DNA of 64,000 nucleotides from an uncultured Candidatus Saccharibacteria bacterium. Its GTDB lineage: Bacteria > Patescibacteriota > Minisyncoccia > UBA6257 > UBA9933. The translations under genes were made by a program, and so were the position numbers. The stretch lies in contig CAYRXZ010000001.1 of assembly GCA_964428615.1 (NCBI GenBank), forward strand, positions 2,334-66,333. Direction: 5' to 3'. The notes under the pieces are model-generated. The model had not been told where the DNA came from. It was given only the letters and a program-made list of their open reading frames with translations, and did not search any database. Of the stretch, positions 8,385 to 59,968 are shown piece after piece. Every line of letters starts with the position of its first letter. Position 1 is the first letter of the stretch.

Positions 8385-11300
8385 TCAAATCTTTTTAATC
8401 CCCGCCCAAATTGAGGAACCATTTATTTTAGTTTCGGCTTCCGCGTCAAATTTATCGGTCCGGTTAAAATAAACATTCTTTGCGGAAATTTTTTCTTTAA
8501 ATTCTTTAATATTCTTTTCTATTGCTGAACGGATTTCTACCGGGACTTCCAGCCATAAATCAATCTTATCTTTCGGCAAAAAACCAGCTTCCTTTCTTAT
8601 ATCCTGCATTGCTCTTGCCATTTCTCTTAATAATCCCTCTGCTTTTAATTCCGGAGTAATTTTTGTGTCCAATTCTATTTCTCCGCCGATTTTCAAATCA
8701 AAAATAATTTTTTTAACATTTATCTCATCTGCCAAAATTCCCAATAATTCTTTTTTATCCTTTAATTCTGAATTCTTAATTCTTAATTCTGAAAGCGGTT
8801 GCCTTACTTTAATTCCTCTATTGCCCCTTAATTCCAAAGCCGCTGAGGCAATTTTTCTAATTTCCACCATTGCCTCAATTAAATCTTTATCTATTAATTT
8901 TTTATCAACCTTCGGCCAATCTTCTAAGTGCACGCTTGCCGCTTGTCGCTTGCCGCTTGTCGCCAAAAAAATTCCCTCTGCCACAAACGGCGCGAATGGC
9001 GCAATAATTTTAGAAAACTCCGACAAAACATATTTTGTTGTTTCTATCGCAGCAAATTTATCACTGTCTTCCAATTTAAACCTTTCACGCGAACGTCGAA
9101 TATACCAAGTTGAAAAATCATCAACGAAACCGCTAAGCGGCCTGACCGCTTTGTCAATTTCATAATTCTCTAACGATTCCGAAACTTCCTGCTTTAATTG
9201 TTCCAACCGGGCAATAATCCATCTATCTAGAACATTTTTATTTGAAGCTTGAAGCTTGAAGCTTGAAGTTTTACTATCGGCGTACATCTCGTAAAATTTA
9301 TAAGTATTCCATAACCGCAATATTGTTTTTTTATAAACTTCATCCACGCCTTTTTCTGAAAAATTCAAATTTTCTCCCGCTACCACGGGAGAAGAAAGCA
9401 AATAAAGCCTCAAACTATCTGCGCCATATTTTGAAACAAGCTCCATTGGGTCAGGATAATTTTTCAATCGTTTGCTCATTTTTTGCCCATTTTCCGCCAA
9501 AATTATGCCATTAACAATAACGTTTTTGTAAGCCGGTTTATCAAACAAAGCTGTTGAGAGAACAAGTAATGTATAGAACCAACCACGGGTTTGGTCCATC
9601 CCCTCAGCGATAAATTCCGCCGGCACCGGAGAAAAATTATTCTTCGGCGTTGAAAACGGAAAATGCGATTGGCCGTAAGGCATTGAACCAGATTCAAACC
9701 AGCAATCAAAAACATCTTCTATTCTTTTCATTTTACTACCGCAACCGCAGATAAATTCCACTTTATCAATATACGGCCTGTGCAAATCAAGCTCAAAATT
9801 TTTATTATGCGGAAATGGAACAAATTTCAAATTTTTTATTTCTCCGGTTTTTATAAAATCTTTTTTATTTTCTCTTATCTTAATCGCCTTTTTGGCGCTT
9901 GCTCCTTCGGCGCCAGCGAAAAGCAGCCAAATCGGATATTCATGACTGATAATTAAAATATTTTTACCGGAATATTTTTTATCAATATCATAAATAAAAT
10001 CTGACATCCTATTTTTTAAATCAGTCAGGTTTTCACCTTTCGGAGCCGGCTTAACGAATTTTTCCTCGTAGGAAGAAAAATGTTCTCCATACTCTTTTAT
10101 TGACTTATTATTTAAATTACCTGTATTGACTTCTCTTAATCTTTTGTCGTAGAAAACCTTTTTAATCCCGAAATGCTTTGCCGCCATTCCCGCAGTTTCT
10201 TTTGTCCGAATAAAATCTGAACTATAAATCAAATCAATATTTTTTATCTTTTTTAGAGTATCAACAATTTCTTTTTTCCCTTTTTCTGTTAGATGGTGAC
10301 TGTTTTTATAATTTGAACTCGCAATACCAAATATATTATTTTCCGCTTGCCCATGCCTCATCACAAAATATTTATTACCCGAAGTTCCCGAATTTTTCTT
10401 TATTTCCTCAACCGAACCGACAACTTTTAATTTTCCGCATTTTTTACATTCCCAGACCGGGAGCGGCGACCCCCAAAAACGGCTTCTTGAAATCGCCCAG
10501 TCTCTCGCGTCTTTAAGCCACTGGCCAAAACGTCCATCTTTCACGTGTGCCGGCAGCCAGCTTATTTTCTGGTTATTTTTTATAAGCTTATCTTTAATCG
10601 CTGTCACCTTCACAAACCAAGAAGATGCCGCGTAATTCAAAAGCGGAGTTTCACAACGCCAGCAATGAGGATATGAGTGGACCACTTTTTCACAATTAAA
10701 AACTAAATTTTTTTCTGAAAGAAATTTTATTATTTTCTCATCGGTTTCTTTTGTATTCTCTCGCGGCTTTGCGCGCAAATTTGTAAAATTTTTAACTTCC
10801 TGTTTTAATTTTCCATTCATTCCGACATGCTGAATAAAAGGCAAATTAAGTTTTTGCCCTAATTCCATATCTTCCGCACCAAAAGCCGGAGCAATATGTA
10901 CAATACCCGTTCCTTCTTCAATATTCACAAAATCCGCCGGATAAATTTTCCATCCGTTTTCACGATCTTTTAATTTTTTATCCTGGCTGAAATAATCAAA
11001 AAGAGGCTTATAATTTTCCCCAACCAATTTATCTCCCTTAAACTTCTCTATAATTTCATACTTTTCTTTTACGGCGCCCAATCTTTCTTCCGCTAAAATA
11101 TATTTTTTGTTATCGAAAGTTTTTATTTTTATATAAGTAATTTTCGGGTTTACCGCCAAAGCCACATTCCCGGGCAAAGTCCAAGATGTCGTTGTCCAAG
11201 CCAAAACAAAAGTTTTCGGCTCGTCAATTAATTCAAATTTCAATGTTATCGCAAAATCTTCAATATTTTTATAGTTCTGGGTAACTTCAAAATTTGAGAG

Positions 11301-11867
11301 TGTTGTTTCACAGCGCGGGCAGATATGCATCGGCTTATAGCCTTTATAAATTAAATTCTTATCATATAAATCTTTAAAAACATGTAAAACTGATTCCATA
11401 TATTCAACATCCATAGTTTTATATGGATTTTTCATATCGACCCAACGACCGATTCTGGGAATCGTTTTTTTCCATTCTGATTCATATTTTAAAACACTGA
11501 TTCTCGCAGCCTCATTGAATTTTTCAACACCAAAATCAATAATGTCTTTTTTGCTTTTCAAGCCCAGTTCTTTTTCGATTTCAAATTCAACCGGTAAACC
11601 ATGGCAATCCCAACCCCATCGCCTTTTAACGCTCTTCCCCTTCATAGTCTGGTAACGAGGAATTGCGTCTTTTATTATTGAAGCTAAAATATGGCCATAA
11701 TGCGGCAAACCATTAGCAAAAGGAGGACCATCGAAAAATCTGTATTCTGCTGACGGTTTACCCTGAGCCTGTCGAAGGGATTTTTCAAAAATATTATTAG
11801 TTTGCCAAAAATTAAGAACTTTTTCTTCAATTTCCGCAGGATTGAAATTTTTAAGATTTTTAAACAT
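8385..11867 (-). CDS. ileS: Isoleucyl-tRNA synthetase with an inserted histidine-phosphatase domain
   Basis: 1160 aa; HIGH-type motif PHYGH, KMSKR motif, zinc-binding CPRC/CWRC, DLHRPYID block; ~210 aa extra domain between WECKKCG and DLHRPYID. Confidence 0.9.
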   Translation of the reverse strand: MFKNLKNFNPAEIEEKVLNFWQTNNIFEKSLRQAQGKPSAEYRFFDGPPFANGLPHYGHILASIIKDAIPRYQTMKGKSVKRRWGWDCHGLPVEFEIEKELGLKSKKDIIDFGVEKFNEAARISVLKYESEWKKTIPRIGRWVDMKNPYKTMDVEYMESVLHVFKDLYDKNLIYKGYKPMHICPRCETTLSNFEVTQNYKNIEDFAITLKFELIDEPKTFVLAWTTTSWTLPGNVALAVNPKITYIKIKTFDNKKYILAEERLGAVKEKYEIIEKFKGDKLVGENYKPLFDYFSQDKKLKDRENGWKIYPADFVNIEEGTGIVHIAPAFGAEDMELGQKLNLPFIQHVGMNGKLKQEVKNFTNLRAKPRENTKETDEKIIKFLSEKNLVFNCEKVVHSYPHCWRCETPLLNYAASSWFVKVTAIKDKLIKNNQKISWLPAHVKDGRFGQWLKDARDWAISRSRFWGSPLPVWECKKCGKLKVVGSVEEIKKNSGTSGNKYFVMRHGQAENNIFGIASSNYKNSHHLTEKGKKEIVDTLKKIKNIDLIYSSDFIRTKETAGMAAKHFGIKKVFYDKRLREVNTGNLNNKSIKEYGEHFSSYEEKFVKPAPKGENLTDLKNRMSDFIYDIDKKYSGKNILIISHEYPIWLLFAGAEGASAKKAIKIRENKKDFIKTGEIKNLKFVPFPHNKNFELDLHRPYIDKVEFICGCGSKMKRIEDVFDCWFESGSMPYGQSHFPFSTPKNNFSPVPAEFIAEGMDQTRGWFYTLLVLSTALFDKPAYKNVIVNGIILAENGQKMSKRLKNYPDPMELVSKYGADSLRLYLLSSPVVAGENLNFSEKGVDEVYKKTILRLWNTYKFYEMYADSKTSSFKLQASNKNVLDRWIIARLEQLKQEVSESLENYEIDKAVRPLSGFVDDFSTWYIRRSRERFKLEDSDKFAAIETTKYVLSEFSKIIAPFAPFVAEGIFLATSGKRQAASVHLEDWPKVDKKLIDKDLIEAMVEIRKIASAALELRGNRGIKVRQPLSELRIKNSELKDKKELLGILADEINVKKIIFDLKIGGEIELDTKITPELKAEGLLREMARAMQDIRKEAGFLPKDKIDLWLEVPVEIRSAIEKNIKEFKEKISAKNVYFNRTDKFDAEAETKINGSSIWAGIKKI
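8763..8793. repeat. Heptamer tandem repeat (WAATTCT)x4 inside ileS
   Basis: taattct gaattct taattct taattct; encodes SELRIKNSEL. Confidence 0.65.
8934..8964. repeat. Heptamer tandem repeat (GCTTGYC)x4 inside ileS
   Basis: gcttgcc gcttgtc gcttgcc gcttgtc gcc; encodes ATSGKRQAAS. Confidence 0.65.
9244..9271. repeat. Heptamer tandem repeat (GAAGCTT)x4 inside ileS
   Basis: gaagctt gaagctt gaagctt gaagttt. Confidence 0.65.
9753..10376 (-). other. Histidine phosphatase (phosphoglycerate-mutase-like, RHG motif) domain inserted within ileS coding sequence
   Basis: Residues ~498-705 of IleRS: VMRHGQAENN (catalytic RHG), IRTKETAGMAA, ILIISHEYPIWLL (second catalytic His) - complete branch-1 histidine phosphatase fold signatures. 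Confidence 0.6.
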
Positions 11868-43670: not shown

Positions 43671-43760
43671 TTTCTAATATTTAATTTCTAAATGTTTTAA
43701 ATTTTAGATTTTATTATTAGAGTTTATTTAGAATTTAGTGCTTAGAATTTAGAATTTTTA
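43671..43760. repeat. ~90-bp intergenic tract of period-7 tandem repeats (TTAGAAT/TTTCTAA family)
   Basis: tttctaa tatttaa tttctaa ... ttagaat ttagtgc ttagaat ttagaat - 7-nt register maintained across the whole cysS-dnaB spacer. Confidence 0.6.
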
Positions 43761-45178: not shown

Positions 45179-47191
45179 TTATCTGGTTTCTGCGCCGAAT
45201 TTTAATTTAAGAATTTTTTTTATTTTTCCCATTTCATCACTTGCTTCTTTTTCTTTAAGAGTGCGGTCTTCAGCCTGAAAAATAATTCTAAAAGTCAGAC
45301 TTCGCTTGTTATTCACCTCATACTCATCAATCATATCTACGTCTTCAATATATTTTAAATTGGATTCCTGAATAAGTTTCATCATTTCTCCAACTTTCGC
45401 TGTCGGATTCACCAAAACCGAAATGTCGCGCATAATTGAAGGATATTTAGATAGTGGTCTATATTCGTGTTCTTCTTCAATTAATTCTAATAAAATATCC
45501 AAATTTATCTCGGCTAAAACTGCCTCGGCGCCGGAATAATCAACCCTGCCAATATAACCGATAATTTTATCTTTAGATTCAATTTCTAAAATTTCTCCCG
45601 AAATCAAATTGCCAACAAAATCATTGACCCAAGCTCCTTTCCCCGGCTCAGGCATCATATAATCAACCAATCCTATATTCTTAAACATATTTTCGATATT
45701 TCCTTTAAGTTCAAAGAAAATTTGCTTGTCTTTTTTTGAAGCAATTAAAATGCCTAAATTTAATTTTTCCGGAGTATTATCGTAAAAGACTTTACCAATT
45801 TCAAAAATTTTAATGCCGTCAAAAAATCTAAAATTGGATTCTATATTTTTAATAAGATTAGACGCCAAAGAAGGCCTCATATATTTCGCCTGATTACTAA
45901 TAGGGTTTTCAAGTTCCAATAATTTATTTTTCCACGCTGGATTTTTACTTAAATCATTCTCGCTAATAAAAGAATAATTTAAAACCTCATCAAACCCGAA
46001 ACCTACCAAAACTTTTCTTAATTTATCTTTAAAAACAATTTTGTCTTCAAAACCCGATGGATGAATGTGAATTTTAGGTGGCTGCGATTTTAATTTATTT
46101 AAACCATAGAGCCTAGTAATTTCTTCCACCAAATCTTCAAAAATTGAAATGTCTGAACGCCAAACTGGGACTTCCACTAAAAATATATTTTTTGTTTTGT
46201 CCGCCGGTTGACGAATTGTTTTTTGTATTATTTTAAATCCAAGTTTATCTAAATAATCACGGCAGACTTTCGCATTTAAATCAACACCAATTAATTTTTT
46301 AAATTTTTCAACGTCAAATTTAATTATTTTTCTACCCAGCTGTATATGATTAACATCAATAATTTTTCCGGCTTTCACGTCGATAATCTCTTCAAGTAAT
46401 TGTTTTGCTCTATTTAATCCAATTTGCGCCAAAGCCGGACTAATATTATGCGAAAAGATTACCGAAGCGTCTGTTGCAATTTTAAGAGATTTTGAAGCCC
46501 TATAAATGCCGGTACCGGCAAAATTCGCCGCTTCAATAACGATTCTTTTTGTATTGGCGGTCACTTCGGCGACTTTTCCTCCTTTTATTCCAGCAATAGC
46601 TAACGGATTTTTAGAGTCTGTAATTACTAAAATATTTTCGTTTAAATCGTAATTTTTATCATCAAGTGAAATTATTTTTTCACCTTTTTTCGCTTTTCGT
46701 ATAATAATCTTAGATTGCGAAAGTTTATCGTAATCAAAAGCGTGCAACGGCTGACCGGTTTCAAGCATAACGTAATTCATAATATCAACCACCGCACTTA
46801 TCGGCCGTAATCCGCATTCTTCTAAAATATCACGCATCCATTTCGGAGAAACGCCGGCTTTAACATTTTCAAAATACTGACCCATATAGCGCGGACACAA
46901 TTTTTTATCTTCTATTAAAACGCTAAAATTGGCCTTAGCAAAACCGTTTTTCAAAGACTTTAAATCAAAAATTGAAGAGGTAAACTTTTTGCCATAAATC
47001 GCCGAAGCTTCGCGGGCAATACCAATATGAGAAGCCGCATCTGAATATCTATTTGCCGGAAGAGCAATTTCAAAAGAATTCCCGCTCAAATCAACCGCCT
47101 CAAAAGCAAATTCATTTAACTTTTTAATCAAATCTTTTTTACTTTTTACGGCCGGTACCAATTTTTTAATTAGAGTATAAGAAAATTTCAT
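45179..47191 (-). CDS. pheT: Phenylalanyl-tRNA synthetase beta subunit (short form lacking N-terminal tRNA-binding domain)
   Basis: 670 aa; starts MKFSYTLIKKL like PheT, B3/4 and B5 domains, C-terminal FDX-ACB-like region. Confidence 0.8.
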   Translation of the reverse strand: MKFSYTLIKKLVPAVKSKKDLIKKLNEFAFEAVDLSGNSFEIALPANRYSDAASHIGIAREASAIYGKKFTSSIFDLKSLKNGFAKANFSVLIEDKKLCPRYMGQYFENVKAGVSPKWMRDILEECGLRPISAVVDIMNYVMLETGQPLHAFDYDKLSQSKIIIRKAKKGEKIISLDDKNYDLNENILVITDSKNPLAIAGIKGGKVAEVTANTKRIVIEAANFAGTGIYRASKSLKIATDASVIFSHNISPALAQIGLNRAKQLLEEIIDVKAGKIIDVNHIQLGRKIIKFDVEKFKKLIGVDLNAKVCRDYLDKLGFKIIQKTIRQPADKTKNIFLVEVPVWRSDISIFEDLVEEITRLYGLNKLKSQPPKIHIHPSGFEDKIVFKDKLRKVLVGFGFDEVLNYSFISENDLSKNPAWKNKLLELENPISNQAKYMRPSLASNLIKNIESNFRFFDGIKIFEIGKVFYDNTPEKLNLGILIASKKDKQIFFELKGNIENMFKNIGLVDYMMPEPGKGAWVNDFVGNLISGEILEIESKDKIIGYIGRVDYSGAEAVLAEINLDILLELIEEEHEYRPLSKYPSIMRDISVLVNPTAKVGEMMKLIQESNLKYIEDVDMIDEYEVNNKRSLTFRIIFQAEDRTLKEKEASDEMGKIKKILKLKFGAETR

Positions 47192-48277: not shown

Positions 48278-48955
48278 CTAACGTATTTTCTTCAAAAAGG
48301 TCAATCTGTGGATTTTTGAGGAGCCGTGTTTTTTTATCATTTTTATATGCTCTTTTGTGCCATAACCCTTATTTTTTTCAAACCCGTATTGCGAATATTT
48401 TTTATGTAAATTTTTCATCTGTCTGTCCCGGCTCACTTTAGCGATAATTGAGGCAAGCGAAATTGCTGAAATTTTCTCATCGCCTTTTATTATTGTCCTG
48501 GATTTCAGATTCCAAGTTTTAAGTTTTAAGCTTTTCAGATATAGCCCCCCGTCTAAACAAACTTTGCAATTTTTAATTCTAAATTCTGAATTCTTAATTA
48601 AAAGTGTAAACGCTTTTCTCGCCGCCAAGTTCGCAGCTTCAGAAATATTTATTTTATCTATTGCCTTCGGAGAAACGCTTGCTATCGCATACTGTAGGCG
48701 TAATTCTTTTTTAGCGTATTTAAACCAAATCTCGCGCTGACTCGATGTTAATTTTTTAGAATCCCTTAGCTTCGCTAATTTAAAATTTAGAATTAAGGAT
48801 TTAGAATTTTTAGTTTTTTTCTTAATTCTTAATTCTGAATTCTTAATTCTTAATTTAGTCGGAACTGCGGTAGCAGCAACGACTACATTTCCCGCCAGCG
48901 CTCCCCTGCCAACTTCGTCTATCCCAATAATATATTTTTCTTTTTTAGAGGCCAT
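48278..48955 (-). CDS. rnhB: Ribonuclease HII carrying two in-frame heptamer-repeat inserts
   Basis: IGIDEVGRGALAGNVVVAA catalytic start; extra segments LRIKNSELRIKKK and IKNSEFRIKN encoded by heptamer repeats. Confidence 0.8.
   Translation of the reverse strand: MASKKEKYIIGIDEVGRGALAGNVVVAATAVPTKLRIKNSELRIKKKTKNSKSLILNFKLAKLRDSKKLTSSQREIWFKYAKKELRLQYAIASVSPKAIDKINISEAANLAARKAFTLLIKNSEFRIKNCKVCLDGGLYLKSLKLKTWNLKSRTIIKGDEKISAISLASIIAKVSRDRQMKNLHKKYSQYGFEKNKGYGTKEHIKMIKKHGSSKIHRLTFLKKIR
48512..48602. repeat. Two heptamer repeat blocks (YAAGTTT x4; WAATTCT x4) inside rnhB
   Basis: ccaagtt ttaagtt ttaagct tttcaga ... taattct aaattct gaattct taattaa. Confidence 0.6.
48776..48860. repeat. Heptamer repeat blocks (AATTTAG/AATTAAG and TCTTAAT x5) inside rnhB
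   Basis: aatttag aattaag gatttag aattttt ... tcttaat tcttaat tctgaat tcttaat tcttaat. Confidence 0.6.
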
Positions 48956-49042: not shown

Positions 49043-49465
49043 TTATAAGTCTAAACTGGCACGCCATCGCGCGCCGAATTTTTTCCCAATATGAATCCGC
49101 CACGCGGAAAATTCAATTGCCCCAAGATTACCATTGGATAACCGATTCAACGCCTCAAACCACGGGCCTTGAGTGTCATACCCTCCTTCTTTCCTGATTT
49201 TTTCCGTGAGGATAACGATAGGGTTTTTCCCTTTGGCCGTCGCTTCATCAATGGAAACGCATCCAAACTTTTGGATGAATTCCGGCGTACAACACTTGTA
49301 ATAGTAACACCAGGCCGATGAAGCGCAAAACGGTACGGGAAGGGTAGATCCATTCTTTTTTTTGAAGTCGACGATAAGGCCAACTTCTTTTTCCACATCG
49401 GGCAAACATGCCCGACATGGCGCCTTAGAATAACATACGGGATTCTTTTTTTTCCGCATAAACAA
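49043..49465 (-). CDS. Cys-rich hypothetical protein (CX5CX2C ... CX4CX5CC) in GC-rich island
   Basis: 140 aa; 7 Cys incl. CYSKAPCRAC and CASSAWCYYYKCC; local GC clearly above window average. Confidence 0.3.
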   Translation of the reverse strand: MFMRKKKNPVCYSKAPCRACLPDVEKEVGLIVDFKKKNGSTLPVPFCASSAWCYYYKCCTPEFIQKFGCVSIDEATAKGKNPIVILTEKIRKEGGYDTQGPWFEALNRLSNGNLGAIEFSAWRIHIGKKFGARWRASLDL

Positions 49466-49470
49466 CCTCC

Positions 49471-49806
49471 TTATTTGACGAAGTATGTGGACTTGTTTTT
49501 TGATCTCCGACTGTCCGTCCCGCTTGATGTCAAAAACTTTCTTTGCGCCGAAGCAAAGGCTTTAAAGAATTCGTCTGCTGTAAGGTGTTTTGCATCAGCC
49601 CTAATTGAAAGATATTGGCGAGATTCAAAAGAAATCACCCCGCCACACTCTTCAATGAGGCAGTATAATGCCTCTCGCGCTTCTTTCTTCTCCTTTTCTA
49701 CTGCGGCAATAAAACCGCAGTTTGAAATCGTTGCGACATCGCGAGTACACCCAAAACTCCATGTCTCGCACCTATCCCTAAACGGACAAACAAATTCTTT
49801 TTCCAT
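49471..49806 (-). CDS. Cys-rich hypothetical protein (CX5CX6CX9C)
   Basis: 111 aa; CPFRDRCETWSFGCTRDVATISNC; 6-nt gap to downstream Cys-rich ORF suggests operon. Confidence 0.3.
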   Translation of the reverse strand: MEKEFVCPFRDRCETWSFGCTRDVATISNCGFIAAVEKEKKEAREALYCLIEECGGVISFESRQYLSIRADAKHLTADEFFKAFASAQRKFLTSSGTDSRRSKNKSTYFVK

Positions 49807-50058: not shown

Positions 50059-50544
50059 ATGACGAAATGGCTTAAAGAAAGATTACCCACACTACTCAAG
50101 GAAGTCCCTTCAGACTTTCAAATGAAATTTTCGGAAAAATCCGAAAACGATGAATTTATCGGAGCGCTTTCTCCAGGTCTCGTTAAAATGGCGAGACTTT
50201 TCGCATGGCTCAATAAAAAGCTCATTGAGGGCTACGAGACACGACTTAGGACCAAATGTGATAAAGAGAGTTCCCGAAACTTCACCCAGGAACAAATGGA
50301 AACGGAAAACGATATGGATGCGGTGAGAGCCAATATATTCACGTCCCTCTGGCACGAGTTGGGTATTTATCCACAAATACAAACATCTCTAAAAATGGAC
50401 AGAGGCGCTATTGTCGCTGTTGTGCCTAAAAAAATTCCTGATCGCGACGCTAAAGTTACGGTTAACGTCGTTCAGATTTCCGGACCATTGCCAAGTATCG
50501 CGGACATCATCAGTGAAATGACCAAGCCACACCTCAACTCTTAA
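50059..50544 (+). CDS. Hypothetical protein (GC-rich island)
   Basis: 161 aa; no recognised domain; followed by strong terminator. Confidence 0.35.
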   Translation: MTKWLKERLPTLLKEVPSDFQMKFSEKSENDEFIGALSPGLVKMARLFAWLNKKLIEGYETRLRTKCDKESSRNFTQEQMETENDMDAVRANIFTSLWHELGIYPQIQTSLKMDRGAIVAVVPKKIPDRDAKVTVNVVQISGPLPSIADIISEMTKPHLNS

Positions 50545-50559: not shown

Positions 50560-50606
50560 ACAGGCCGTCCTGTTTTTATAAACAGTTGCGGCCTTTTTTA
50601 TTTTTA
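50560..50606. terminator. Bidirectional rho-independent terminator (GGCCG..CTGTTTttatAAACAG..CGGCC + T6ATTTTT)
   Basis: Nested hairpin between convergent 50059..50544 (+) and giant gene (-, stop 50604). Confidence 0.5.
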
Positions 50607-53600
50607 TTCCCCAAAACCGATTTTTATATACCAATCTACGGCCGAATTGATATTTACCGAATCGTCTATATAGCTCCCAAAAGGAGAAACTTTTATAAAT
50701 ACCTGCCCCGATTCACCGCCGGAATAAACATCGCTTCCGCTAACCGCGCTCTGCCAAGAGTTTGAAAGTGAATCGCTATAAGAATGAAATGTATAACTTG
50801 AATTTTCCAAAACAAACCAATATTTAACTCCCGAGCTTAAAACAACGTTCGGCGAAAAGCTGAAAACCAAGTCGCGATTTTGCGGGTCGCCCGATAAACC
50901 TGAAATAGTCGAAGCTGAAATAAGGTTATTAAAATCCGGCTTATTCCCGTTATCACCAAAAACCGTAAGTTTTAAATTAAAACTCGCGCCACTATCTTGT
51001 GAATGTTTTACTTTTAAAATAACCTTATTAAATTCCAAGCTTTCTGCTAAAGTAATACTTTGAATATTTGCTGCGCTAATACCATTCCAATTCATTTGCC
51101 CAAAATTATTACTCCAACCGTCGTCAATTTCCTGAATTAGATTAAAATTAATTGGCGGGTATTCCCAATTTGTCGAAAGCGTTAATATTGAATAATTATT
51201 AAAATTATCTTTTACCATGACGCTTATTGAAAAACTTTCTCCAGGCGAAACGAATCTTGAAGTGCCTGTGGCGTTACCCGCCGAACCCCAGCTCTCGTCA
51301 TTGTATTTAATTTCGTAAACTAAAAGGCTATCCAGCGTATCGGCGTCCGTGGCTTTCGACCAAGAAAGGTTTAATTTGGAATTTACGCTATCAAAATTTT
51401 TGACGATTTCGCCATTAAAAATAGGGGTTTGACGTTTCGGTTCAATCCCAAAATAATATTTTGTTTTGTCCGTCGCGACCAATTGAAACTCCGGATTTAA
51501 ACCGTCAAAAGTCGGGATAGATGAAACAGAATAAAAAACAGCTGTCATAAAATCATTTTCATCAAGACTTAATTCCCCGCTTGATTTAACGGTTTTTATA
51601 ATAAAATGGTTGTCTTCCAATTGAGAAAAACTAAAAGACCTATTAACCGCGCCGCCAGGAAAACCGCTACAATTATTAATATCCGGCAAAATCAAAGAAT
51701 CCCCGCCTGTCCCGCCCGCGCATTGGCTATATCTTAACTCCAAAACATTAGTCAAATCATTCGGCCGCCAATAAGGATTATTTAAATCGTTTTTCGCGTC
51801 GCTATTCAAATAAAAAACTGCTATTTTCCACGTATTGCCCTTATTGAACAAATCCGGGATAAAAGGATATTGCTCGTAATACGCGTCTATCAAAATTTCG
51901 CTGTCTTGAGGACTTTGGTAAAAATATAAACCCGAAAAAAAACTCGGAATACTTATTGAAGAAGTCGCTTCGTCCGAACCAAAACCATCTTCATCAAACG
52001 CCTGAATAGAAAAATGGTAATCGCGGCCGACTTCGTTTATTGTAATTTTTTCCGTTGTTGATGTTGATTCCACTATTGGCAATGTCGCACTCGCATTACT
52101 AATATCAAAAATTTTATAAACTAAAGTTGAGGTGGCCCCTAAATAATCTTGCGATTCACTCCACTCAAAATTTAATTCCATTCTGCTTTGCGCGTATTGA
52201 ACGTTGAAATTTTCCGGTTTTGTCGGCGCAATTCTCGGCTCAGGCAAGCTTAAAGAATTTTGCGGATTAGGAATTTCGCGGGTGTCAAAATCCCCATCGC
52301 TATCGCTATCGCAACCGTTTCCGGAAAATTCTCCGCTCGATTGCGATCGAGCGCAAGCGTTATTTATCCACGCTTTTCGTTCTAAGCTCTGGTTTTCGCC
52401 GACAGAGGAATCATAAGAAATCGAATCTACTTCTCCGCCATTGTTATTAAACAAAAAGACAGTGCTTGAACTGTTAGACAACGAACTCGCCCTAACTATA
52501 TCCGCCGTAACGCTTCCAGTATAATTATTTAATCCTATCAAGAAAAATCCTTTGCTTTTTATCAAAATGTTATCTTCTTGTTTGGAACCGAATTTTGCCA
52601 AAAGCTTCGTTGATGTGGCATCGCCTGTTAAAATATTTAAAGAATAATTTGTCAGATCAATTTCGTTGTCTATTGGATTATATAATTCAATAAATTCTTT
52701 TCCTTCGTCGCTTCCTTGAGCATTAAAAAGAATTTCTGAAATTACAATATGATTTGCGCCCGCTAAAGAAACGGGGATGTTTGCCGTAACTGGAGTTGAG
52801 GAAACTCCTTGATTGTTGAAGACAACAAGACTTGTCTCATAACTCCCGAATCTTGAATAGATATGTGAAGCCACCGAACTTGAGGTGATTAATGTGCCGC
52901 CATCTCCAAAGCTCCACTCATAAGAAATAATTTGCCCATTAGAGTCAGTTGAAGAAGCGGCATTGAAATTTACAACTTGCCAGGCCTGGGGGCTCTCTGG
53001 AGAATAAACAAAAAAGGCGCTGGGCGCCTGATTTGACTGGCTTGTTTGAAGATTTTTGATTTTAAAATCGTTAGAATTGTTGTCTGTATCGACAAACACG
53101 TTATTTTGCAACTTTCTTTCAATACTTTGGTTTTCCGTTGGTTCCAGAGCACAAGAACTCTCGCAATCACTGGAATTGCCCCAACCAACTTTATCCACAA
53201 CATCACCGTTAGAATTTTTTATCTGAATAGAATTCGCCTCTGTAAGCGTTAGGCTGTCCAAGAAAATATCGGCATTCATATCTGAACGTGAAATTAAGAA
53301 AAAACTTTTTGCCGAAATTATTTTATTTTCAAAATAAGTTTTTGAAACGAGCGAAGAAAAAGAACTGCCAGTTTTAGTTTTTCTTTGAATATACCAATTA
53401 GTTAAGTTAATAGCTGAATCGTTTGGGTTATAAAGCTTAATAAATCTGTTCCCGGTTGGAGAAATTTGAACTTCGTTTATTAAAATTTTTATTACGTTTG
53501 ATTGCTGATTTTGATTTACTGATCCGCCACCAAAATAAACTGTTTGCACGGGCGCCGATGCCGTTGAATTTTCCGCTTTCGGCGTTCCATTCACAACACT

Positions 53601-55487
53601 TGAAGTGTACCAATTAAAACCGCTTGCGTCGCGCTCCATTGTTTTTCTTTCGCTACTGTTTCCGGCGGGCCAATCGAGATTCGCCAAAACTTCGTCAATC
53701 AAATTGCATTGGCTATCAAAAAGCCTCAAGCCTTCGTTTGTGTTTGAAAGCGCGCCGCTATAAATTAAATCAGCTTTTATGTTTTGAACCGAATTATCAT
53801 CCGTTCTTTCAAATAAAAGAAGCTTGTTTGCTCCGATAATTTTGCTTCCATTGATGGAACCAAAATTTATTTTTATTTGTTCATCTTTATCTATTAATTG
53901 CCAATTACCAACATCTACGTTTCCGCCAGAAATATTTTTCAACTCAATCCATTCATCGCTAGCGCTGTTTAAAGTCCCCATCCAAGCAACCTCATTAATA
54001 ATGATTTTTTGACGTGAAGGGGTTTGATTAGTAATAAAAGAGCATTGTCTTACTGTCACGACCGGCGTTATTCTATTATTATCTTCGTTGTCATCAAGTT
54101 TATTTTCTAAATCTTGCTCTATATTTATCTCATCATCTTTTTCATTTTGAATAACTTCATTCTCTTGAATTTCTTGAACAATTTCTTCTTTTACTGGTTT
54201 TTGTATTAATTCTTTTTGTATTATTTTTGAATTATCGATTTTATCTTTTTCTATGGATTTAATATCGATGTTTTGATTTTTGTTTTCATTTTGATTTAAA
54301 TCTATTTGTTCCACTTGTTCAAAATTATTATCCGAGTTAAAAATACCTGTTAAAAATTTATTCGCCGAAGAAACTATTCCACTTGCCGTCGAGCCGACTT
54401 GAGCCATAAAATTTCCAACTGTTTCCACAGCATTACCGATGACCGACCTTTCTTCAGCAGTATTAAAATTCGGATCATTTTTCGCTTTTTCAACTTCTTG
54501 GAAGAATAGATTTATCACACCGGCGCCATATTGAACGGATTTTGTGGAGAGGCGGGACCAGTAGTCGGACATTACTCTCTCATCTCCTATATTAATAACA
54601 CCTTTAATGTCTATTAAAACACTTGATTGAACGGGTTGTGCCGATAATTTATAAAATCCATCATCATCTTTGCCTAATTTAAATAAAATGTCATCTATTT
54701 TTTCATAAGTAATTGATTCTGGTAATTCATAACCGCTCTGAACGCCAATTGTATCTTTGCTATAAAAATTACTATTTGAATATTTTGCCAGTTGATCAAA
54801 ATAAGAATTCAAGTCTGATAAAACAACAGGAGTTTTATTGATTAATCTGGTGCCTAAATTTTTATCAGAATTACTTAAATTAAATTGCTCTGCATACATT
54901 TCATAAGGACTACCCGTAGCGTGTGGATCATTCCTTGTGTGATCTGGGACAGCCTTGTCTTCAATTAAATGTAAAATGTGGCCAAGCGTAAACATTGCTT
55001 TTTCTTTTTCGCCTTGAACATAAAATTTAATTGCTCTTTGCCACGTAAAATCAGTTTCGCTTGTTAAAGCGCTAATCGCTCTTTGTTGAATAGCGGTTAA
55101 AACTGAAGCAATGGCGGTTGGAACTTTATAAGTTAAACTATTTTGATTATTGCTGTCTTGCGCCCAATTTTTAGATTTTTGCCAATTTCCCAAATTGTAA
55201 AGAGGGTCAATAGAGGGATCGCGAGTAAGACCCTTGTCTTTAATTGGGTCATAAAAATGATTCATCCAACGGGGAATATCATCTTCGCGCCGAGAGCCGT
55301 CTAAAAGATAAGGAACTAAATCATCAGAAATTTTATTGTTTGAGAAATTCTGATTGTAAAATTTAATAATTTCATCAGTTAAAAAAGTATGTGTTTCTAC
55401 ATTGTAAGCAAAAACATTGCTAAAATTAATAATAAAAAATCCCAATATTAAAATTGAGATTATTTTTATAAGCTTTCTATTTTCCAT
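50604..55487 (-). CDS. Giant exported surface protein: N-terminal zinc-dependent phospholipase-C-like domain, three lamin-tail domains (LTD), PKD domain, C-terminal beta-rich region
   Basis: 1627 aa; N-term TM; WMNHFYDP and HILHLIEDKAVPDHTRNDPHA (Zn-PLC-like); LTD motifs IINEVAWMGT...SDEWIELKN, ILINEVQISPTGNRFIKLYNP, IVISEILFNAQGSDEGKEFIELYNP; PKD WSFGDGG. Confidence 0.7.
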   Translation of the reverse strand: MENRKLIKIISILILGFFIINFSNVFAYNVETHTFLTDEIIKFYNQNFSNNKISDDLVPYLLDGSRREDDIPRWMNHFYDPIKDKGLTRDPSIDPLYNLGNWQKSKNWAQDSNNQNSLTYKVPTAIASVLTAIQQRAISALTSETDFTWQRAIKFYVQGEKEKAMFTLGHILHLIEDKAVPDHTRNDPHATGSPYEMYAEQFNLSNSDKNLGTRLINKTPVVLSDLNSYFDQLAKYSNSNFYSKDTIGVQSGYELPESITYEKIDDILFKLGKDDDGFYKLSAQPVQSSVLIDIKGVINIGDERVMSDYWSRLSTKSVQYGAGVINLFFQEVEKAKNDPNFNTAEERSVIGNAVETVGNFMAQVGSTASGIVSSANKFLTGIFNSDNNFEQVEQIDLNQNENKNQNIDIKSIEKDKIDNSKIIQKELIQKPVKEEIVQEIQENEVIQNEKDDEINIEQDLENKLDDNEDNNRITPVVTVRQCSFITNQTPSRQKIIINEVAWMGTLNSASDEWIELKNISGGNVDVGNWQLIDKDEQIKINFGSINGSKIIGANKLLLFERTDDNSVQNIKADLIYSGALSNTNEGLRLFDSQCNLIDEVLANLDWPAGNSSERKTMERDASGFNWYTSSVVNGTPKAENSTASAPVQTVYFGGGSVNQNQQSNVIKILINEVQISPTGNRFIKLYNPNDSAINLTNWYIQRKTKTGSSFSSLVSKTYFENKIISAKSFFLISRSDMNADIFLDSLTLTEANSIQIKNSNGDVVDKVGWGNSSDCESSCALEPTENQSIERKLQNNVFVDTDNNSNDFKIKNLQTSQSNQAPSAFFVYSPESPQAWQVVNFNAASSTDSNGQIISYEWSFGDGGTLITSSSVASHIYSRFGSYETSLVVFNNQGVSSTPVTANIPVSLAGANHIVISEILFNAQGSDEGKEFIELYNPIDNEIDLTNYSLNILTGDATSTKLLAKFGSKQEDNILIKSKGFFLIGLNNYTGSVTADIVRASSLSNSSSTVFLFNNNGGEVDSISYDSSVGENQSLERKAWINNACARSQSSGEFSGNGCDSDSDGDFDTREIPNPQNSLSLPEPRIAPTKPENFNVQYAQSRMELNFEWSESQDYLGATSTLVYKIFDISNASATLPIVESTSTTEKITINEVGRDYHFSIQAFDEDGFGSDEATSSISIPSFFSGLYFYQSPQDSEILIDAYYEQYPFIPDLFNKGNTWKIAVFYLNSDAKNDLNNPYWRPNDLTNVLELRYSQCAGGTGGDSLILPDINNCSGFPGGAVNRSFSFSQLEDNHFIIKTVKSSGELSLDENDFMTAVFYSVSSIPTFDGLNPEFQLVATDKTKYYFGIEPKRQTPIFNGEIVKNFDSVNSKLNLSWSKATDADTLDSLLVYEIKYNDESWGSAGNATGTSRFVSPGESFSISVMVKDNFNNYSILTLSTNWEYPPINFNLIQEIDDGWSNNFGQMNWNGISAANIQSITLAESLEFNKVILKVKHSQDSGASFNLKLTVFGDNGNKPDFNNLISASTISGLSGDPQNRDLVFSFSPNVVLSSGVKYWFVLENSSYTFHSYSDSLSNSWQSAVSGSDVYSGGESGQVFIKVSPFGSYIDDSVNINSAVDWYIKIGFGE

Positions 55488-56020
55488 ACGCCAGAAATCT
55501 CATTAAATTCTAAATCAATATAGGCTTTTAATTCTCCGTTTTCGCGTACAGCAAATTTAAAATCTTTATCATACGCACGAGCCTTTATATCAGGTTTTGC
55601 TTTTAATAATAAATCTGCCACTTCTTGCAACTCGCCTGCTTGTTTGGTTTTTTCTAATCCTTCTAACCATTTTGGATCAATACTCCCATCTGATCTCAAC
55701 ATAAAATATTTACTCGCCAATTCCACATCATCTTTTTTTAGAGCATCAATAAACATTTTCAACGTTTCTTCCGGTGTTTTACCTCCATAAATGTCGTTTT
55801 TCATTGCCTCCTCAAAATCTTCCCGCCAATCAAGATATTTTTCGTAATTTTCCTGATTCTGCCTATCTAATTTCGCCTGCGGGCTCAAGTATTTATCCCA
55901 AACAAAATACCCGCCCGCGAATAAAATGATTATTGCCAAAAACCCAACAACAAACTTCCAATATTTATTTTTATTCTTCGACGCATCCGGCGGATTAGAT
56001 AAAAAATTTTGCTCTTCCAT
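55466..56020 (-). CDS. Hypothetical membrane-anchored protein co-transcribed with giant surface protein
   Basis: ORF 55466..56065; probable ATG MEEQNF at 56020; one TM then soluble domain; 22-nt overlap with downstream giant gene. Confidence 0.35.
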   Translation of the reverse strand: MEEQNFLSNPPDASKNKNKYWKFVVGFLAIIILFAGGYFVWDKYLSPQAKLDRQNQENYEKYLDWREDFEEAMKNDIYGGKTPEETLKMFIDALKKDDVELASKYFMLRSDGSIDPKWLEGLEKTKQAGELQEVADLLLKAKPDIKARAYDKDFKFAVRENGELKAYIDLEFNEISGVWKIESL

Positions 56021-56121
56021 AATTTTAAAATTTTTATAAAAATAAAAGAGGGATCGCTCCCTCACTAGCTTTAATATTATTATAACAAATTTGTTTCCAT
56101 AAAAATGTGGATAACTTATTC

Positions 56122-56185: not shown

Positions 56186-56761
56186 ATGAGAATAACAAAA
56201 CATTGGAAGATTAACAACCTGACTAAAGATACTTTGTTAAAATTAGCTCTCGGAGGAGCGTTTATTTTAGTTTCTATTTCATCTCCATATTTTTTAAATC
56301 AAGTAGCTAAAAATTATTTTAAAGAAAAAAGCAAAAAAGCTGCATATGCACGGGCTAAAAGACTAGGCGAATTGGAAAAGAAAAAAATTATTTCATTCAA
56401 AGAGTCTAGTAACAACAAAATTAAAATAGAACTCACACATAAAGGAAAATTATTAGTAAGAGAATACAATCTAGATAATTTAAAATTAAATAAACCGAAA
56501 GTGTGGGATAAAAAATGGAGAATATTTATGTATGATATTCCCGACTATCACAAAAAAGCTCGGGATGCTTTTAGATTTAAAATAAAACAGCTCGGCTTAT
56601 ACCCACTCCAAAAAAGCGTTTGGATATCACCTTATGATTGTACGCCAGAGATTGAATTTCTTTGCGCTGTTTTTGATATAGACATTAATAGCCATGTTTA
56701 TCAACTAACAACAACTCAAATTCCAAAAGAACGAGAAGTTAAAAAGTGGTTTGATTTATAG
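56186..56761 (+). CDS. PaaX-family-like wHTH transcriptional regulator, paralog 2
   Basis: 191 aa; WDKKWRIFMYDIP...LGLYPLQKSVWISP parallels WDGKWRIIMFDIP...LEYKPIQKSVFMGKSP of 41563..42153 protein and PaaX WDGKWLLLL block. Confidence 0.55.
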   Translation: MRITKHWKINNLTKDTLLKLALGGAFILVSISSPYFLNQVAKNYFKEKSKKAAYARAKRLGELEKKKIISFKESSNNKIKIELTHKGKLLVREYNLDNLKLNKPKVWDKKWRIFMYDIPDYHKKARDAFRFKIKQLGLYPLQKSVWISPYDCTPEIEFLCAVFDIDINSHVYQLTTTQIPKEREVKKWFDL

Positions 56762-56865: not shown

Positions 56866-58032
56866 TTATATAATAACTCCGCCGCCGAGAAGGGCGCCTT
56901 TTTTGTTATAGAATACGGCTGATTGGCCAGGAGCGACGAACTTAACTGGTTTAATAAATAGTAAATAGTAATTAGTAATTGGGAGTTTTTTGTTTTCCCT
57001 TGTTACTTGTTGCTTATTACTTATTATTAATTCCGCTTTTTCAAGCAGCTGGCGATAGCGGACTCGTGCCATGACTAAAATTTTTGATTTTTTACCTTTT
57101 AGTTTTTCGTCCGATAAATTAACATTTATCAATTCAACTTCTTTTTTATACAATGCCGGGTTTTCATTCCCCTCGACGAGAACAAGAGTGTTTGTTTTTT
57201 TATTTTTCTCGGCAACGTAATACGGCTGTCTGTCTTTTTGAAATTTAATTCGCCGACTGGCGGAAGGAAAATTTATTTTTGCATTTATGTGCCTTTGGCC
57301 GATTGTATAAAATTGAACACCGCTGTGTTCGCCAATTATCTTTCCTTCAAAATCCAAAATTTTTCCTTTTTTCTTGGAAATATATTTTTTCAAAAAATCT
57401 TCAATTTTTATTTTCCCTAAAAAGCACACACCTTGAGAATCTTTTTTTTCGGCGGTTATCAAGCCGGCGGCTTTGGCGATTTTTCGGACTTGCGGTTTCA
57501 AATAATCACCTATCGGAAATAAACAGTGAGCTAATTGCTCCGCTGTTAAAGCCCAAAGAAAATATGATTGGTCTTTATTTTTATCTTTGGCTTGATAAAG
57601 ATTTTTTGATTTTAATTTCACATAATGTCCTGTTGCCACATAATCGGCTCCGAATTTTAAAGCGCGTTCCAAAAACAGACCGAATTTTATTTCTTTATTA
57701 CACATTATATCGGGATTTGGAGTTGAGCCTTTTTTATAACCATCTATCATATATTTAATAACTTTCTTTTTATATTGTTTACGAAAATCCCAAATGTAAA
57801 ACGGGATTTTAAGTTTTTGGGCAACCAAAGCAGCATCGCGGCTATCTTTTTTAGTACAGCCATCTTTTGAATCGTAGCAACGCATAAAAACACCAACTAC
57901 GTCATAGCCTTTCTTTTTAAGCAGTAATGCTGCGACGCTGGAGTCCACGCCACCACTCATACCGACAAAAACCCTTCTACTCCGCTCAGGGTAAACCTTT
58001 TTCTTTTTAAGCTTTTTCAACTCTTTCAACAT
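56866..58032 (-). CDS. mnmA: tRNA-specific 2-thiouridylase MnmA
   Basis: 388 aa; PP-loop VGMSGGVDSSVAALLLK, catalytic Cys region; contains heptamer-repeat-encoded segment. Confidence 0.85.
   Translation of the reverse strand: MLKELKKLKKKKVYPERSRRVFVGMSGGVDSSVAALLLKKKGYDVVGVFMRCYDSKDGCTKKDSRDAALVAQKLKIPFYIWDFRKQYKKKVIKYMIDGYKKGSTPNPDIMCNKEIKFGLFLERALKFGADYVATGHYVKLKSKNLYQAKDKNKDQSYFLWALTAEQLAHCLFPIGDYLKPQVRKIAKAAGLITAEKKDSQGVCFLGKIKIEDFLKKYISKKKGKILDFEGKIIGEHSGVQFYTIGQRHINAKINFPSASRRIKFQKDRQPYYVAEKNKKTNTLVLVEGNENPALYKKEVELINVNLSDEKLKGKKSKILVMARVRYRQLLEKAELIISNKQQVTRENKKLPITNYYLLFIKPVKFVAPGQSAVFYNKKGALLGGGVII
56955..57026. repeat. Heptamer repeat blocks (TAAATAG x4; MCTTRTT x4) inside mnmA
   Basis: taaatag taaatag taattag taattgg ... 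ccttgtt acttgtt gcttatt acttatt. Confidence 0.6.
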
Positions 58033-58618: not shown

Positions 58619-59968
58619 TTAAAACAATTTTTTCTGAATCTCCAAATCTTTTTTCTCTTGCTCGCTGAAAATTTTTACTTTACCATATTCACCATCAAAG
58701 CCCGGCTCTACTTTTAATTTCTTTTCACGAACCGCTACTATTCCTTTTACAACTTTTTCATCGGCGATGGTTCTTAATTCTTCAACGCTTAAATCAATTA
58801 AAATTTTTAATTCCGAACCGAATGTTTTAATTAATTTAATATATTCTTCTTTGACTTTCTTTGTAGCAACCCCCATACCATAAACCTCGGCAATAATTTC
58901 GTCAAGCGGAATCAAACTATAATATGGGACCCTATTTTCATAAGTATTATAAAATTTTTCTTTTTCAAGTTTTATTTCCGGTCTATCGGCTAATTTATCA
59001 ATCCTATTCATTGTGCCAATAGTCAATTTTTTCCCGCATTTTGGGCAAATACTATTATGCTTCTTTGTTTCTTCTGGAGGAAAAACTACACCGCAAGCCC
59101 TGTGGCCATCAAAGTGATATCTGCCCTCTTCGGGAAAAAACTCTATTGTCGCTACAAACGCTGATTTATGCTGATTTGACGCTGATTTTCGCTGGTTAGG
59201 AGCGCCGCTTTTTATCGCTTTAATAATTCCATTATATGACAACTCTGTGTTAAAAATATTCGCTTCTCTGCCTATTCTTGGGGCTGAATGAGAATCGGAA
59301 TTTGATATCAAAGCGATATTGTCTAATTTTGAAAGCCGCCAATTCATAGCCGGATCGCTTGAAAGCCCGGTTTCAATGGCAAAAATGTTTTTAGTATATT
59401 CACCAAAACATTCTTCAATTGAATCAAAGCCCGACATTGAACCAAAAACGGAAAACCACGGGGTCCAAGCGTGCGCCGGAATTATTACCGCCAAAGGATT
59501 GGCGTTAAAAACTATTTTCGCCAGCTCACGGCAATCGAGCCCTAAAATCGGCCGGCCATCTGATTTTAGATTGCCTATCCAACCAAGTTGCGTATTAATT
59601 TTTTCAACAGTTTCAAAATCAGGAGCAAAAAGCAAATTGTGAACTCTATAAACTCTTTTCTGGCCCGTGGACGGAGATTGACGAGAATAAATACTCGAAA
59701 CTTCGGCGGTTAAAACAAATCTCGTTTCTGCCAAAGTTCCTTTTATAGTCGGGCGTTTGTATTGCTGTTTTAATTTAAAAAGTCCAGGCTCGGCCAACTC
59801 TAATCTTTCTTTAAGTTCGCCAAACCATTTCGGATGAGTAAAATCTCCGGTCGCCATTACCAAAATTCCTTTATCATCCGCCCAGCGGTCAAGCTCCTCT
59901 AAATCCATATTTGGAGAAGTAGCACGAGAATATTTTGAGTGAATATGTAAGTCGGCGATAAATTTCAT
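58619..59968 (-). CDS. Endonuclease Q-like PHP-domain nuclease (TIGR00375 family) with C-terminal zinc finger
   Basis: 449 aa; LHIHSKYSRATS PHP start, IPAHAWTPW, GLSSDPAM, SNSDSHSAPRIGREAN, CPKCGKKL, LIDLSVEEL, C-terminal GFDGEYGKVKI match Pyrococcus EndoQ blocks. Confidence 0.75.
   Translation of the reverse strand: MKFIADLHIHSKYSRATSPNMDLEELDRWADDKGILVMATGDFTHPKWFGELKERLELAEPGLFKLKQQYKRPTIKGTLAETRFVLTAEVSSIYSRQSPSTGQKRVYRVHNLLFAPDFETVEKINTQLGWIGNLKSDGRPILGLDCRELAKIVFNANPLAVIIPAHAWTPWFSVFGSMSGFDSIEECFGEYTKNIFAIETGLSSDPAMNWRLSKLDNIALISNSDSHSAPRIGREANIFNTELSYNGIIKAIKSGAPNQRKSASNQHKSAFVATIEFFPEEGRYHFDGHRACGVVFPPEETKKHNSICPKCGKKLTIGTMNRIDKLADRPEIKLEKEKFYNTYENRVPYYSLIPLDEIIAEVYGMGVATKKVKEEYIKLIKTFGSELKILIDLSVEELRTIADEKVVKGIVAVREKKLKVEPGFDGEYGKVKIFSEQEKKDLEIQKKLF

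Follow-up and report, generated by a model that had tools for sequence, protein, structure and literature searches.

Period-7 repeats read in frame within the RNase HII gene and other housekeeping genes of a Patescibacteria lineage

Essential genes would be expected to shed repeats with a unit length not divisible by three nucleotides, yet such repeats are the dominant class in the DNA examined here. How such repeats come to lie in frame within a conserved enzyme is the question raised by rnhB, the gene for RNase HII, in a 64,000-nucleotide stretch of an uncultured bacterium deposited as Candidatus Saccharibacteria (GenBank assembly GCA_964428615.1, contig CAYRXZ010000001.1, positions 2,334 to 66,333; hereafter the window, GC ~36%). 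We found that rnhB carries heptanucleotide tracts at three sites and that such tracts recur at loosely constrained orthologous sites in relatives with changing unit, orientation, and length. The reading that we favor, and that we consider somewhat likelier to be right than wrong, is that the tracts are hypervariable heptanucleotide simple-sequence repeats (SSRs) that originate from slippage and template switching, are tolerated in loosely constrained coding segments, and are recombined.

The 225-aa product of the rnhB open reading frame (ORF) matched the Pfam RNase_HII profile (PF01351) with an E-value of 5.7e-30 and 105.1 bits (cut-off 25.8) and resembled the solved RNase HII structures 3o3g, 2etj, and 7uwe with E-values of ~1e-23 to 1e-25. 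Forty orthologs of 55-77% identity were aligned; rnhB orthologs are labeled by their sources as Candidatus Wolfebacteria and Paceibacterota (Patescibacteria), which puts the organism in that group. In the alignment, the catalytic core was invariant, and three sites were hypervariable. Despite the repeat tracts, D13-E14, D65-S66-K67, D135, and G158-D159 were invariant across the 40 orthologs; we presume that these residues are catalytic from prior knowledge of T. maritima RNase HII. The gene, its three sites, and the arrays called in it by Tandem Repeats Finder (TRF) are the following.

48278..48955, minus strand: rnhB, RNase HII, 225 aa, the host gene of the tracts
48770..48866, minus strand: site 1, whole hairpin with flanking stem (ACTAAATT / AATTTAG), a low-confidence loop
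48823..48850, minus strand: site 1, 5′ arm in the mRNA, AGAATTA AGAATTC AGAATTA AGAATTA, reading RIKNSELRIK
48810..48822, minus strand: site 1, A-rich loop (AAGAAAAAAACTA region), peptide KKKT
48777..48809, plus strand: site 1, 3′ arm, AGAATTN-type on the plus strand; its NAATTCT units in the mRNA read KNSKSLILNFK and pair with the 5′ arm
48567..48599, minus strand: site 2, array AGAATTC AGAATTT AGAATTA AAAATTG, reading KNSEFRIKNC
48536..48566, minus strand: conserved non-repeat segment (K)VCLDGGLYL between sites 2 and 3, with the invariant Asp135 at 48551-48553
48510..48535, minus strand: site 3, array of TTAAAAC units in the mRNA (AAGTTTT on the plus strand), reading LKLKTW
48514-48534: TRF array AAGTTTT, 3.0 copies, in rnhB
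48575-48599: TRF array AATTCTA, 3.6 copies, in rnhB
48777-48809: TRF array AATTTAG, 4.7 copies, in rnhB
48819-48855: TRF array TTCTTAA, 5.3 copies, in rnhB

The initial annotation of this DNA had reported period-7 blocks in rnhB at 48512..48602 and 48776..48860. The four TRF arrays (3.0-5.3 copies each) lie within these blocks, and the peptides it quoted are correct in-frame translations, namely, LRIKNSELRIKKKTKNSKSLILNF at aa 35-58 and LLIKNSEFRIKNCKV at aa 118-132. Its description of the blocks as two separate insertions had to be revised. The block 48776..48860 is an inverted repeat composed of (AGAATTN)4, a loop, and (NAATTCT)4, with arms 83-88% complementary, and the block 48512..48602 consists of two arrays flanking CLDGGLYL. 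Four-unit AGAATTN runs were located at 48567-48594, 48782-48809, and 48823-48850. The sense arm of site 1 reads RIKNSEL and the antisense arm NSKFLIL, which accounts for the two peptide flavors that had been noted earlier. Folded as RNA, site 1 gave a minimum free energy of -17.2 kcal/mol (z = -3.3), and none of 200 shuffles was as stable; folded as DNA, it gave z = -2.3. The stem is bulged, with an unpaired base at each seventh position, and the loop varies in sequence among orthologs, in some of which its length is off by 3-6 nt. In the window, the region spanning sites 2 and 3 folded no better than shuffles (z = +0.3), and long-range pairing of these two sites was rejected on this ground.

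An AlphaFold model of the rnhB product was built on the 40 orthologs. The predicted local distance difference test score was 80-93 in the core and dropped below 50 at site 1 (residues 39-60) and at site 3 (residues 146-160). Site 3 corresponds to a low-confidence loop between Asp135 and Asp159, and site 2 is predicted to take in the C-terminal end of helix 104-122 and the loop preceding the catalytic strand. When aligned to the solved RNase HII structures, the low-confidence segments of sites 1 and 3 fell in gaps. Relative to T. maritima RNase HII, the extra residues number ~22 at site 1, ~6 at site 2, and ~7 at site 3.

Period 7 stood out in the whole window. At lag 7, nine strict self-matching blocks were found, against 0.15 in dinucleotide shuffles, with 0-2 blocks at the lags of other unit periods and six at lag 14, the double unit. 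Per 100 kb, the window had 14.1 lag-7 blocks, close relatives had 9.3, other Patescibacteria (867 kb of Patescibacteria-like loci) had 2.5, and other bacteria (360 kb) had 0.28, and periods other than 7 were not enriched in this lineage comparison. Twelve of the 14 window tracts lie within ORFs and are open in frame. When ~0.98 Mb of related loci was added to the window, 38 of 43 tracts (~88%) fell within long open stretches; the 43 tracts comprised 30 canonical units, and 12 of them were of AGAATTN type. Furthermore, indels between the syntenic pheT and cysS genes of four relatives were mostly period-7 tracts or small palindromes. Period-7 arrays are strongly and specifically enriched in a Wolfebacteria/Paceibacteria-like lineage, mostly inside housekeeping genes. 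Chance low complexity in AT-rich DNA, or an assembly artifact, could be entertained because the genome (~36% GC) and the repeat units are both AT-rich. This explanation is effectively refuted, as 0 of 100 shuffles reached the observed count, the enrichment was limited to period 7, an identical protein occurs under four source labels, and homologous tracts were present in contigs of several independent assemblies or projects.

The same repeat family and other heptamers occur elsewhere in the window, as listed below.

7008..8381, minus strand: glycerate kinase-like ORF, with two tracts
8027..8067, plus strand: glycerate kinase-like site 1, AGAATTN x5 on the plus strand (run 8030-8064), reading LNSKFLILNSEFL
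7231..7264, minus strand: glycerate kinase-like site 2, AGAATTC AGAATTT AGAATTC AGAATTA (run 7231-7258), reading IQNSEFRIQN
8385..11867, minus strand: ileS
8762..8794, minus strand: AGAATTN x4 array in ileS (run 8763-8790), reading SELRIKNSEL, in the linker that joins the Anticodon_1 domain to DUF5915
9240..9273, minus strand: heptamer GCTTCAA x4 in ileS, reading KTSSFKLQASN
8932..8963, minus strand: heptamer GCAAGCG / ACAAGCG x4 in ileS, reading ATSGKRQAAS
3001..3031, minus strand: heptamer GACAAAC x3.6 in an enolase-like ORF (2498..3748; function judged from sequence), reading YKLQTTNDKQ
43726..43757, plus strand: intergenic ATTTAGA x4.6, of the AGAATTN family with N = T, giving TAG in the sense reading and not open

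Orthologs of the ORF at 7008..8381 have the Pfam domains DUF4147 and MOFRL, and their sources call them glycerate 2-kinase. With up to one mismatch allowed, AGAATTNAGAATT occurred 22 times in the window against a shuffle expectation of 2.49, a count reached by 0 of 100 shuffles. Three genes hold AGAATTN-family tracts at six sites in total, namely, rnhB, the glycerate kinase-like gene, and ileS, and all three are open through their tracts; the arrays of the latter two are in frame, in agreement with the NSE(F/L)RIKN-type reading first proposed for them. Many other heptamer units occur in the window, so that AGAATTN is only the most frequent unit in a broader period-7 pattern.

The variable seventh base carries the mark of a coding filter. 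Three consecutive 7-nt units cover all three codon phases and encode a constant heptapeptide because 7 is coprime to 3, and for AGAATTN the codon arithmetic leaves the seventh base alone to determine whether a stop occurs. For the sense reading to stay open, T is excluded as N in the NAG phase, and only C or T is allowed as N in the TNA phase. Consequently, uniform arrays remain open only as AGAATTC in the sense direction (RIQNSEF) or as AGAATTG in the antisense direction (QFSILNS). The coding tracts of the window have mixed N values, all consistent with stop avoidance, and the sole intergenic AGAATTN-family array in the window has N = T, giving TAG. A metagenome scan for (AGAATTN)4 returned a mixed set of GC 0.23-0.71, unsuited to taxonomy or counting, with 36 of 128 sites inside ORFs of at least 150 aa. 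In this set, the commonest peptides near tracts in long ORFs were QNSEFRIQN and NSQFSILNS, which are the two open uniform readings, and in-frame tracts also lay in ORFs resembling LeuRS, GluRS, ArgRS, and MetH (by eye, from flanking motifs). These patterns are direct evidence from the sequence that a coding filter has acted on the tracts. As a separate observation, uniform AGAATTG arrays (antisense NSQFSIL) appeared in many unrelated metagenome contigs among L089-L208 (e.g., L107, L110, L139, L143, and L153), some of which have a GC of 0.6-0.7, where an AT-rich tract is unexpected.

Comparison of orthologous sites then showed how labile the tracts are. At rnhB site 1, the hairpin peptide LRIKNSELRIKKKSKNSKFLILNSK was common to many orthologs, and some orthologs held other peptides. 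The site was 7 aa shorter than in the window in P0002, 14 aa shorter in P0029, and very short in P0017 (locus L083), P0026, P0027, and P0111; L083 retains two TTAAAAC units, the unit found at site 3 of the window. In codon-level alignments of syntenic loci, site 1 consisted of AAATCCC/AAATTCN in L081 and of AAATTCC units broken up by GC-rich mini-hairpins in L084, and in more distant Patescibacteria it consisted of AGTATNA (L002), AAATAGC (L007), or GAATTGN (L004). In L086 and L088, the catalytic strand is flanked by sites 2 and 3 as inverted copies of each other, (TAGCCAC)n and (TAnTGGC)n. Similarly, 60 glycerate kinase orthologs had 7-aa-periodic peptides at both sites with at least eight different units, those of site 1 including KLEIRNS, LQTTNYK, LKTQNSK, and VKCQMSN. 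At the DNA level, site 1 of this gene was (GAAATTN)5 in L159 and (NAATTCT)5 in the window, the purine-rich strand being in opposite orientation. AGAATTN tracts were also present in several genes of L003, and a scan of relatives found three exact AGAATTN units in 0 of 80 loci among the matches listed, which did not include the closest relatives.

These comparisons bear on what the initial annotation had made of the tracts. The ortholog alignment confirmed that tract residues are not conserved RNase HII core; whereas the core does not vary, nothing in the protein varies more than the tracts. The status of the tracts as insertions held for the real ~22-aa extra loop of site 1 and for the few residues added at sites 2 and 3, but not for glycerate kinase and ileS, whose tracts stand in for native segments of similar length with no net gain relative to solved structures. 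Recent, recurrent insertion of one repeat family was not borne out, as the orthologous sites of proteins 55-77% identical already hold period-7 arrays, often of different units. Between the two causes that had been offered, tolerated microsatellite hotspots fit the data far better than targeted insertion.

The tempo of this variation became apparent from three rnhB alleles with ~99% nucleotide identity outside the tracts, which differ at site 3 as follows.

L209:521-1279: rnhB allele with a full hairpin at site 3
L210:1157-1858: rnhB allele with a single (AAATTCT)5 arm at site 3
L211:399-1124: rnhB allele with (AAATCAA)4 at site 3

Sites 1 and 2 of these alleles differ too, by smaller changes, and the substitutions among the alleles cluster beside the variable sites. 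This clustering suggests recombination tracts, in which the repeats would mark or provoke breakpoints and give rise to mosaic genes. All 40 aligned rnhB orthologs and the three strain variants were full-length and in frame, with differences in multiples of 3 nt, in a protein database of called ORFs only, in which frameshifted rnhB alleles would be under-sampled. Phase variation was rejected because every aligned rnhB variant among these called ORFs is in frame.

That the differences between ~99%-identical strains fall almost wholly in the three tracts could also point to a benefit at the protein level, whereby the arrays would generate surface diversity or heptad-like arms, allowing escape from phage or host inhibitors or lineage-specific contacts. 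The predicted placement of the tracts in exposed, low-confidence loops and the occupation of the same sites over a wide clade are in line with this idea. Nevertheless, we regard it as quite unlikely, since no reason is known why diversifying selection should act on the host proteins, which are cytoplasmic housekeeping enzymes, the tracts are missing in some orthologs, and a DNA periodicity of 7 nt, not only a peptide period of 21 nt, points to a mutational origin.

Against the fast turnover between strains stands the conservation of the site 1 arms between species. In five species with ~60-66% protein identity, the same codon was used in 151 of 166 comparisons at identical residues, against 92.7 expected from per-amino-acid same-codon rates in the core of rnhB (91% in the arms versus 53% in the core). 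This per-amino-acid control rejected codon bias as the cause. In the fold of the five-species alignment, 33 pairs were conserved, only one of the 33 was compensatory, and the covariation term was unfavorable (+1.32); the hairpin is conserved through invariance rather than covariation, and a selected RNA structure was unsupported. A functional DNA or RNA element, such as an mRNA hairpin tuning decay or translation or a tandem set of sites bound by a lineage-specific protein, would explain why synonymous positions are more conserved in the arms than in the core and why a hairpin more stable than shuffles was kept in five species. It is highly improbable in our judgment, given the near lack of compensatory pairs, the unpaired base at every seventh position, the shuffle-like folding of sites 2 and 3, and the free variation of unit, orientation, and presence between relatives and strains.

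A further possibility, which we consider unlikely, is that the tracts are very small mobile palindromic elements, i.e., ~70-80-nt heptamer hairpin cassettes akin to Rickettsia palindromic elements (RPEs) or MITEs (miniature transposable elements with inverted repeats). Single arms would then be decayed cassettes, and insertions into genes would survive only if in frame and tolerated. Such cassettes could account for the stable hairpin of site 1 with its 33 pairs kept in five species, for arms near-identical in nucleotides across species of ~60-66% protein identity, for the AGAATTN family at six sites of three window genes, and for the seemingly empty or near-empty site 1 in P0017/L083, P0026, P0027, and P0111. 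The exchange of a full hairpin for a single arm at site 3 of near-identical strains and the opposite orientation at one glycerate kinase site in two species would be explained as well. Relatives also show presence or absence of other in-frame palindromes, e.g., the 20-nt CCTGCCTGCCGGCAGGCAGG in cysS of L084, and in-frame palindromic insertions are established in Rickettsia (PMC10969869). A single family is insufficient, however, where orthologous sites hold unrelated units (30 canonical units in 43 arrays), and the inverted arrays of L086 and L088 flank a conserved catalytic segment, which is impossible by a single insertion. The glycerate kinase and ileS tracts replaced native sequence without added length. 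AAATTA is found at both ends of site 1, yet it belongs to the stem, and no clear target-site duplication could be called; no transposase was present among the ten window ORFs scanned against Pfam.

In the reading that we favor, the tracts as tolerated heptanucleotide SSRs, replication slippage with a preference for period 7, as has been proposed for heptamer repeats of bacteria at large, would create the tracts and turn them over, hairpin-mediated template switching or deletion would make or remove inverted arms, and homologous recombination between strains would swap whole tracts together with their flanks. Selection would retain only net length changes in multiples of 3 nt, typically 21 nt (three units), and only those seventh bases that avoid stops in their codon phase. 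The tracts are probably without a dedicated function and represent tolerated, fast-evolving filler in surface loops.

Several observations weigh against this account. Whole tracts were swapped between ~99%-identical strains, for which point mutation plus slippage is too slow, so that recombination or insertion and excision is needed. The codon conservation of the site 1 arms points to a shared source, homogenization, or selection, and not to neutral in-place drift. One-unit steps of 7 nt cause a frameshift in an essential gene, and hence stepwise slippage fails to explain the birth of a tract or why periods 6 and 9 are not enriched. The exclusivity of period 7 and the recurrence of AGAATTN are likewise left unexplained by slippage, and the presence of AGAATTN at six sites in three window genes and in several genes of L003 is what a dispersing element would give. 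Taken together, fast turnover and a restricted, recurring vocabulary of units argue against both a selected RNA structure and plain neutral drift, and the turnover pattern is compatible with homogenization, ectopic templating or recombination, or a dispersing cassette. More speculatively, the clade may have a period-7-specific mechanism, either enzyme-driven templated addition at breaks or a mobile heptamer hairpin cassette, that rewrites loop-coding segments; we give this proposal a minor chance of being correct. If true, it would constitute a new class of intragenic, frame-compatible repeat dynamics, unlike ordinary microsatellite slippage and RPEs, and would yield strain-level hypervariability in near-identical housekeeping proteins.

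Other repeat structures were observed alongside the heptamer tracts. In pheT, an ATACAAA x5 array (IQNTKYKIQNT; ~aa 378-402 of the alignment) was intact in L083 and L084, carried a nested GC-rich insertion in L081, and had decayed to non-periodic sequence in the pheT equivalent of the window (45179..47191); these four genes may represent a small series of states that such a tract can pass through. GC-rich in-frame palindromes in relatives included two perfect ones, CCTGCCTGCCGGCAGGCAGG (20 nt) and CTGCTTCCCTCGAGGGAAGCAG (22 nt), as well as mini-hairpins, CCCTTCGGGG being one example. They were located in cysS of L084 (the 20-nt CCTGCCTGCCGGCAGGCAGG), at rnhB site 2 of L083 (L083:1153-1779), and in the rnhB site 1 arms of L086 and L087; some were nested within heptamer arms, and they were missing from the orthologous sites of other genomes. 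These GC-rich mini-palindromes resemble another class of tiny elements, one that is clearly insertional, and a screen of the window for them returned few, possibly by chance. A second architecture, read in frame, consists of ~10-nt repeat units (AATCCGTGTA, ATCCGCGTNA, and ACACGGACCA), often as inverted arrays; it was seen at window positions 2817-2857 in the enolase-like ORF, in pheT of L084, and at rnhB site 3 of L084 and L087, with peptides such as YTDPNTDLHGL and INQRNPHKSAS. An mnmA-like ORF (tRNA 2-thiouridylase, 56866..58032) has TAAATAG and CTTATTA arrays at 56951-57026, near its 3′ end.

Some neighboring genes were characterized by their domains. The isoleucyl-tRNA synthetase encoded at 8385..11867 (minus strand) has a histidine-phosphatase domain (His_Phos_1, RHG motif; E-value 8.6e-26) inserted at aa 501-663, where it splits the class I catalytic domain in two. 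Upstream of rnhB are genes for a 1627-aa protein with lamin-tail and PKD domains (50604..55487, minus strand) and for a small protein with a PaaX central (Cas2-like) domain (56186..56761, plus strand). Pfam returned no match for the ORFs at 49043..49465, 49471..49806, 50059..50544, 55466..56065, and 58619..59968.

The tracts are the main difference between near-identical strains, and the same protein sites recur across a large uncultivated clade. If general, the phenomenon would account for much of the unusual length variation and low-complexity insertion seen in proteins of the candidate phyla radiation, and it bears on ortholog alignment, structure prediction, and strain typing of these organisms. 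It also offers a natural system in which to ask why slippage in bacterial replication prefers 7-base steps, how hairpin tracts promote recombination, and how far core enzymes tolerate loop insertions.

Among known systems, heptameric repeats are over-represented in bacteria, vary between relatives, and occasionally form inverted pairs, and polymerase slippage has been proposed for their origin (PMC4692102). The tracts described here share with these SSRs the tandem 7-nt units in at least three copies, the over-representation of period 7, the occasional inverted pairs, the lineage- and locus-specific units, and the polymorphism in length and sequence at the same locus among relatives. The published Xanthomonas and Nostoc cases (GGGAATC / GGGGA(T/C)T; cyanobacterial STRR) were described as intergenic (PMC4692102), whereas ~88% of the tracts here lie in frame within housekeeping ORFs. 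Their units are AT-rich, not G-rich or quadruplex-forming, and the hosts are Patescibacteria. In the paper library searched, no paper combined "heptanucleotide" and "Patescibacteria." Nostoc small dispersed repeats are, as Elhai et al. (2008) reportedly described them, hairpins of 21-27 nt inside tandem heptamer repeats, to which the ~10-30-nt GC-rich mini-palindromes of L083, L084, L086, and L087, nested in heptamers or alone in frame, can be likened by description only; unlike those repeats, they lie in coding sequence of Patescibacteria, and the window has few of them.

Other comparisons concern repeats inside genes. RPEs are in-frame palindromic repeats inside unrelated housekeeping genes of a reduced-genome host, with peptides judged compatible with the protein fold (PMC10969869). 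Like them, the tracts appear in frame in the unrelated housekeeping genes rnhB, glycerate kinase-like, and ileS, and site 1, the only hairpin-forming site of rnhB in the window, is palindromic, in frame, and adds an extra peptide. Unlike them, the cassette here consists of ~70-80 nt of heptamers, RPEs being ~150 bp with a family consensus and no 7-nt periodicity; many tracts are single arms, the units differ between orthologous sites, and several tracts replace native sequence. With respect to MITEs, the stem of site 1 reaches into the flanks (ACTAAATT / AATTTAG), and its terminal AAATTA copies are part of that stem. PARCELs are coding repeats with dyad symmetry, either strand of which gives a peptide, as is the case here, and they are 25-residue (75-nt) domains in long tandem arrays within horizontally spread ORFs of unassigned function, often membrane proteins (PMC2996958); the period here is 7 nt (7 aa), in short tracts inside conserved enzymes. 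As in phase-variable contingency loci, the repeat sits within an ORF and has a unit length not divisible by three, and a change of one unit would shift the frame, but the hosts are essential housekeeping genes and not surface or virulence genes, and all aligned variants are in frame. Compared with each of these systems, the setting is new: period-7 repeats, often hairpins, that lie within essential genes of a candidate phyla radiation lineage and are hypervariable at the strain level.

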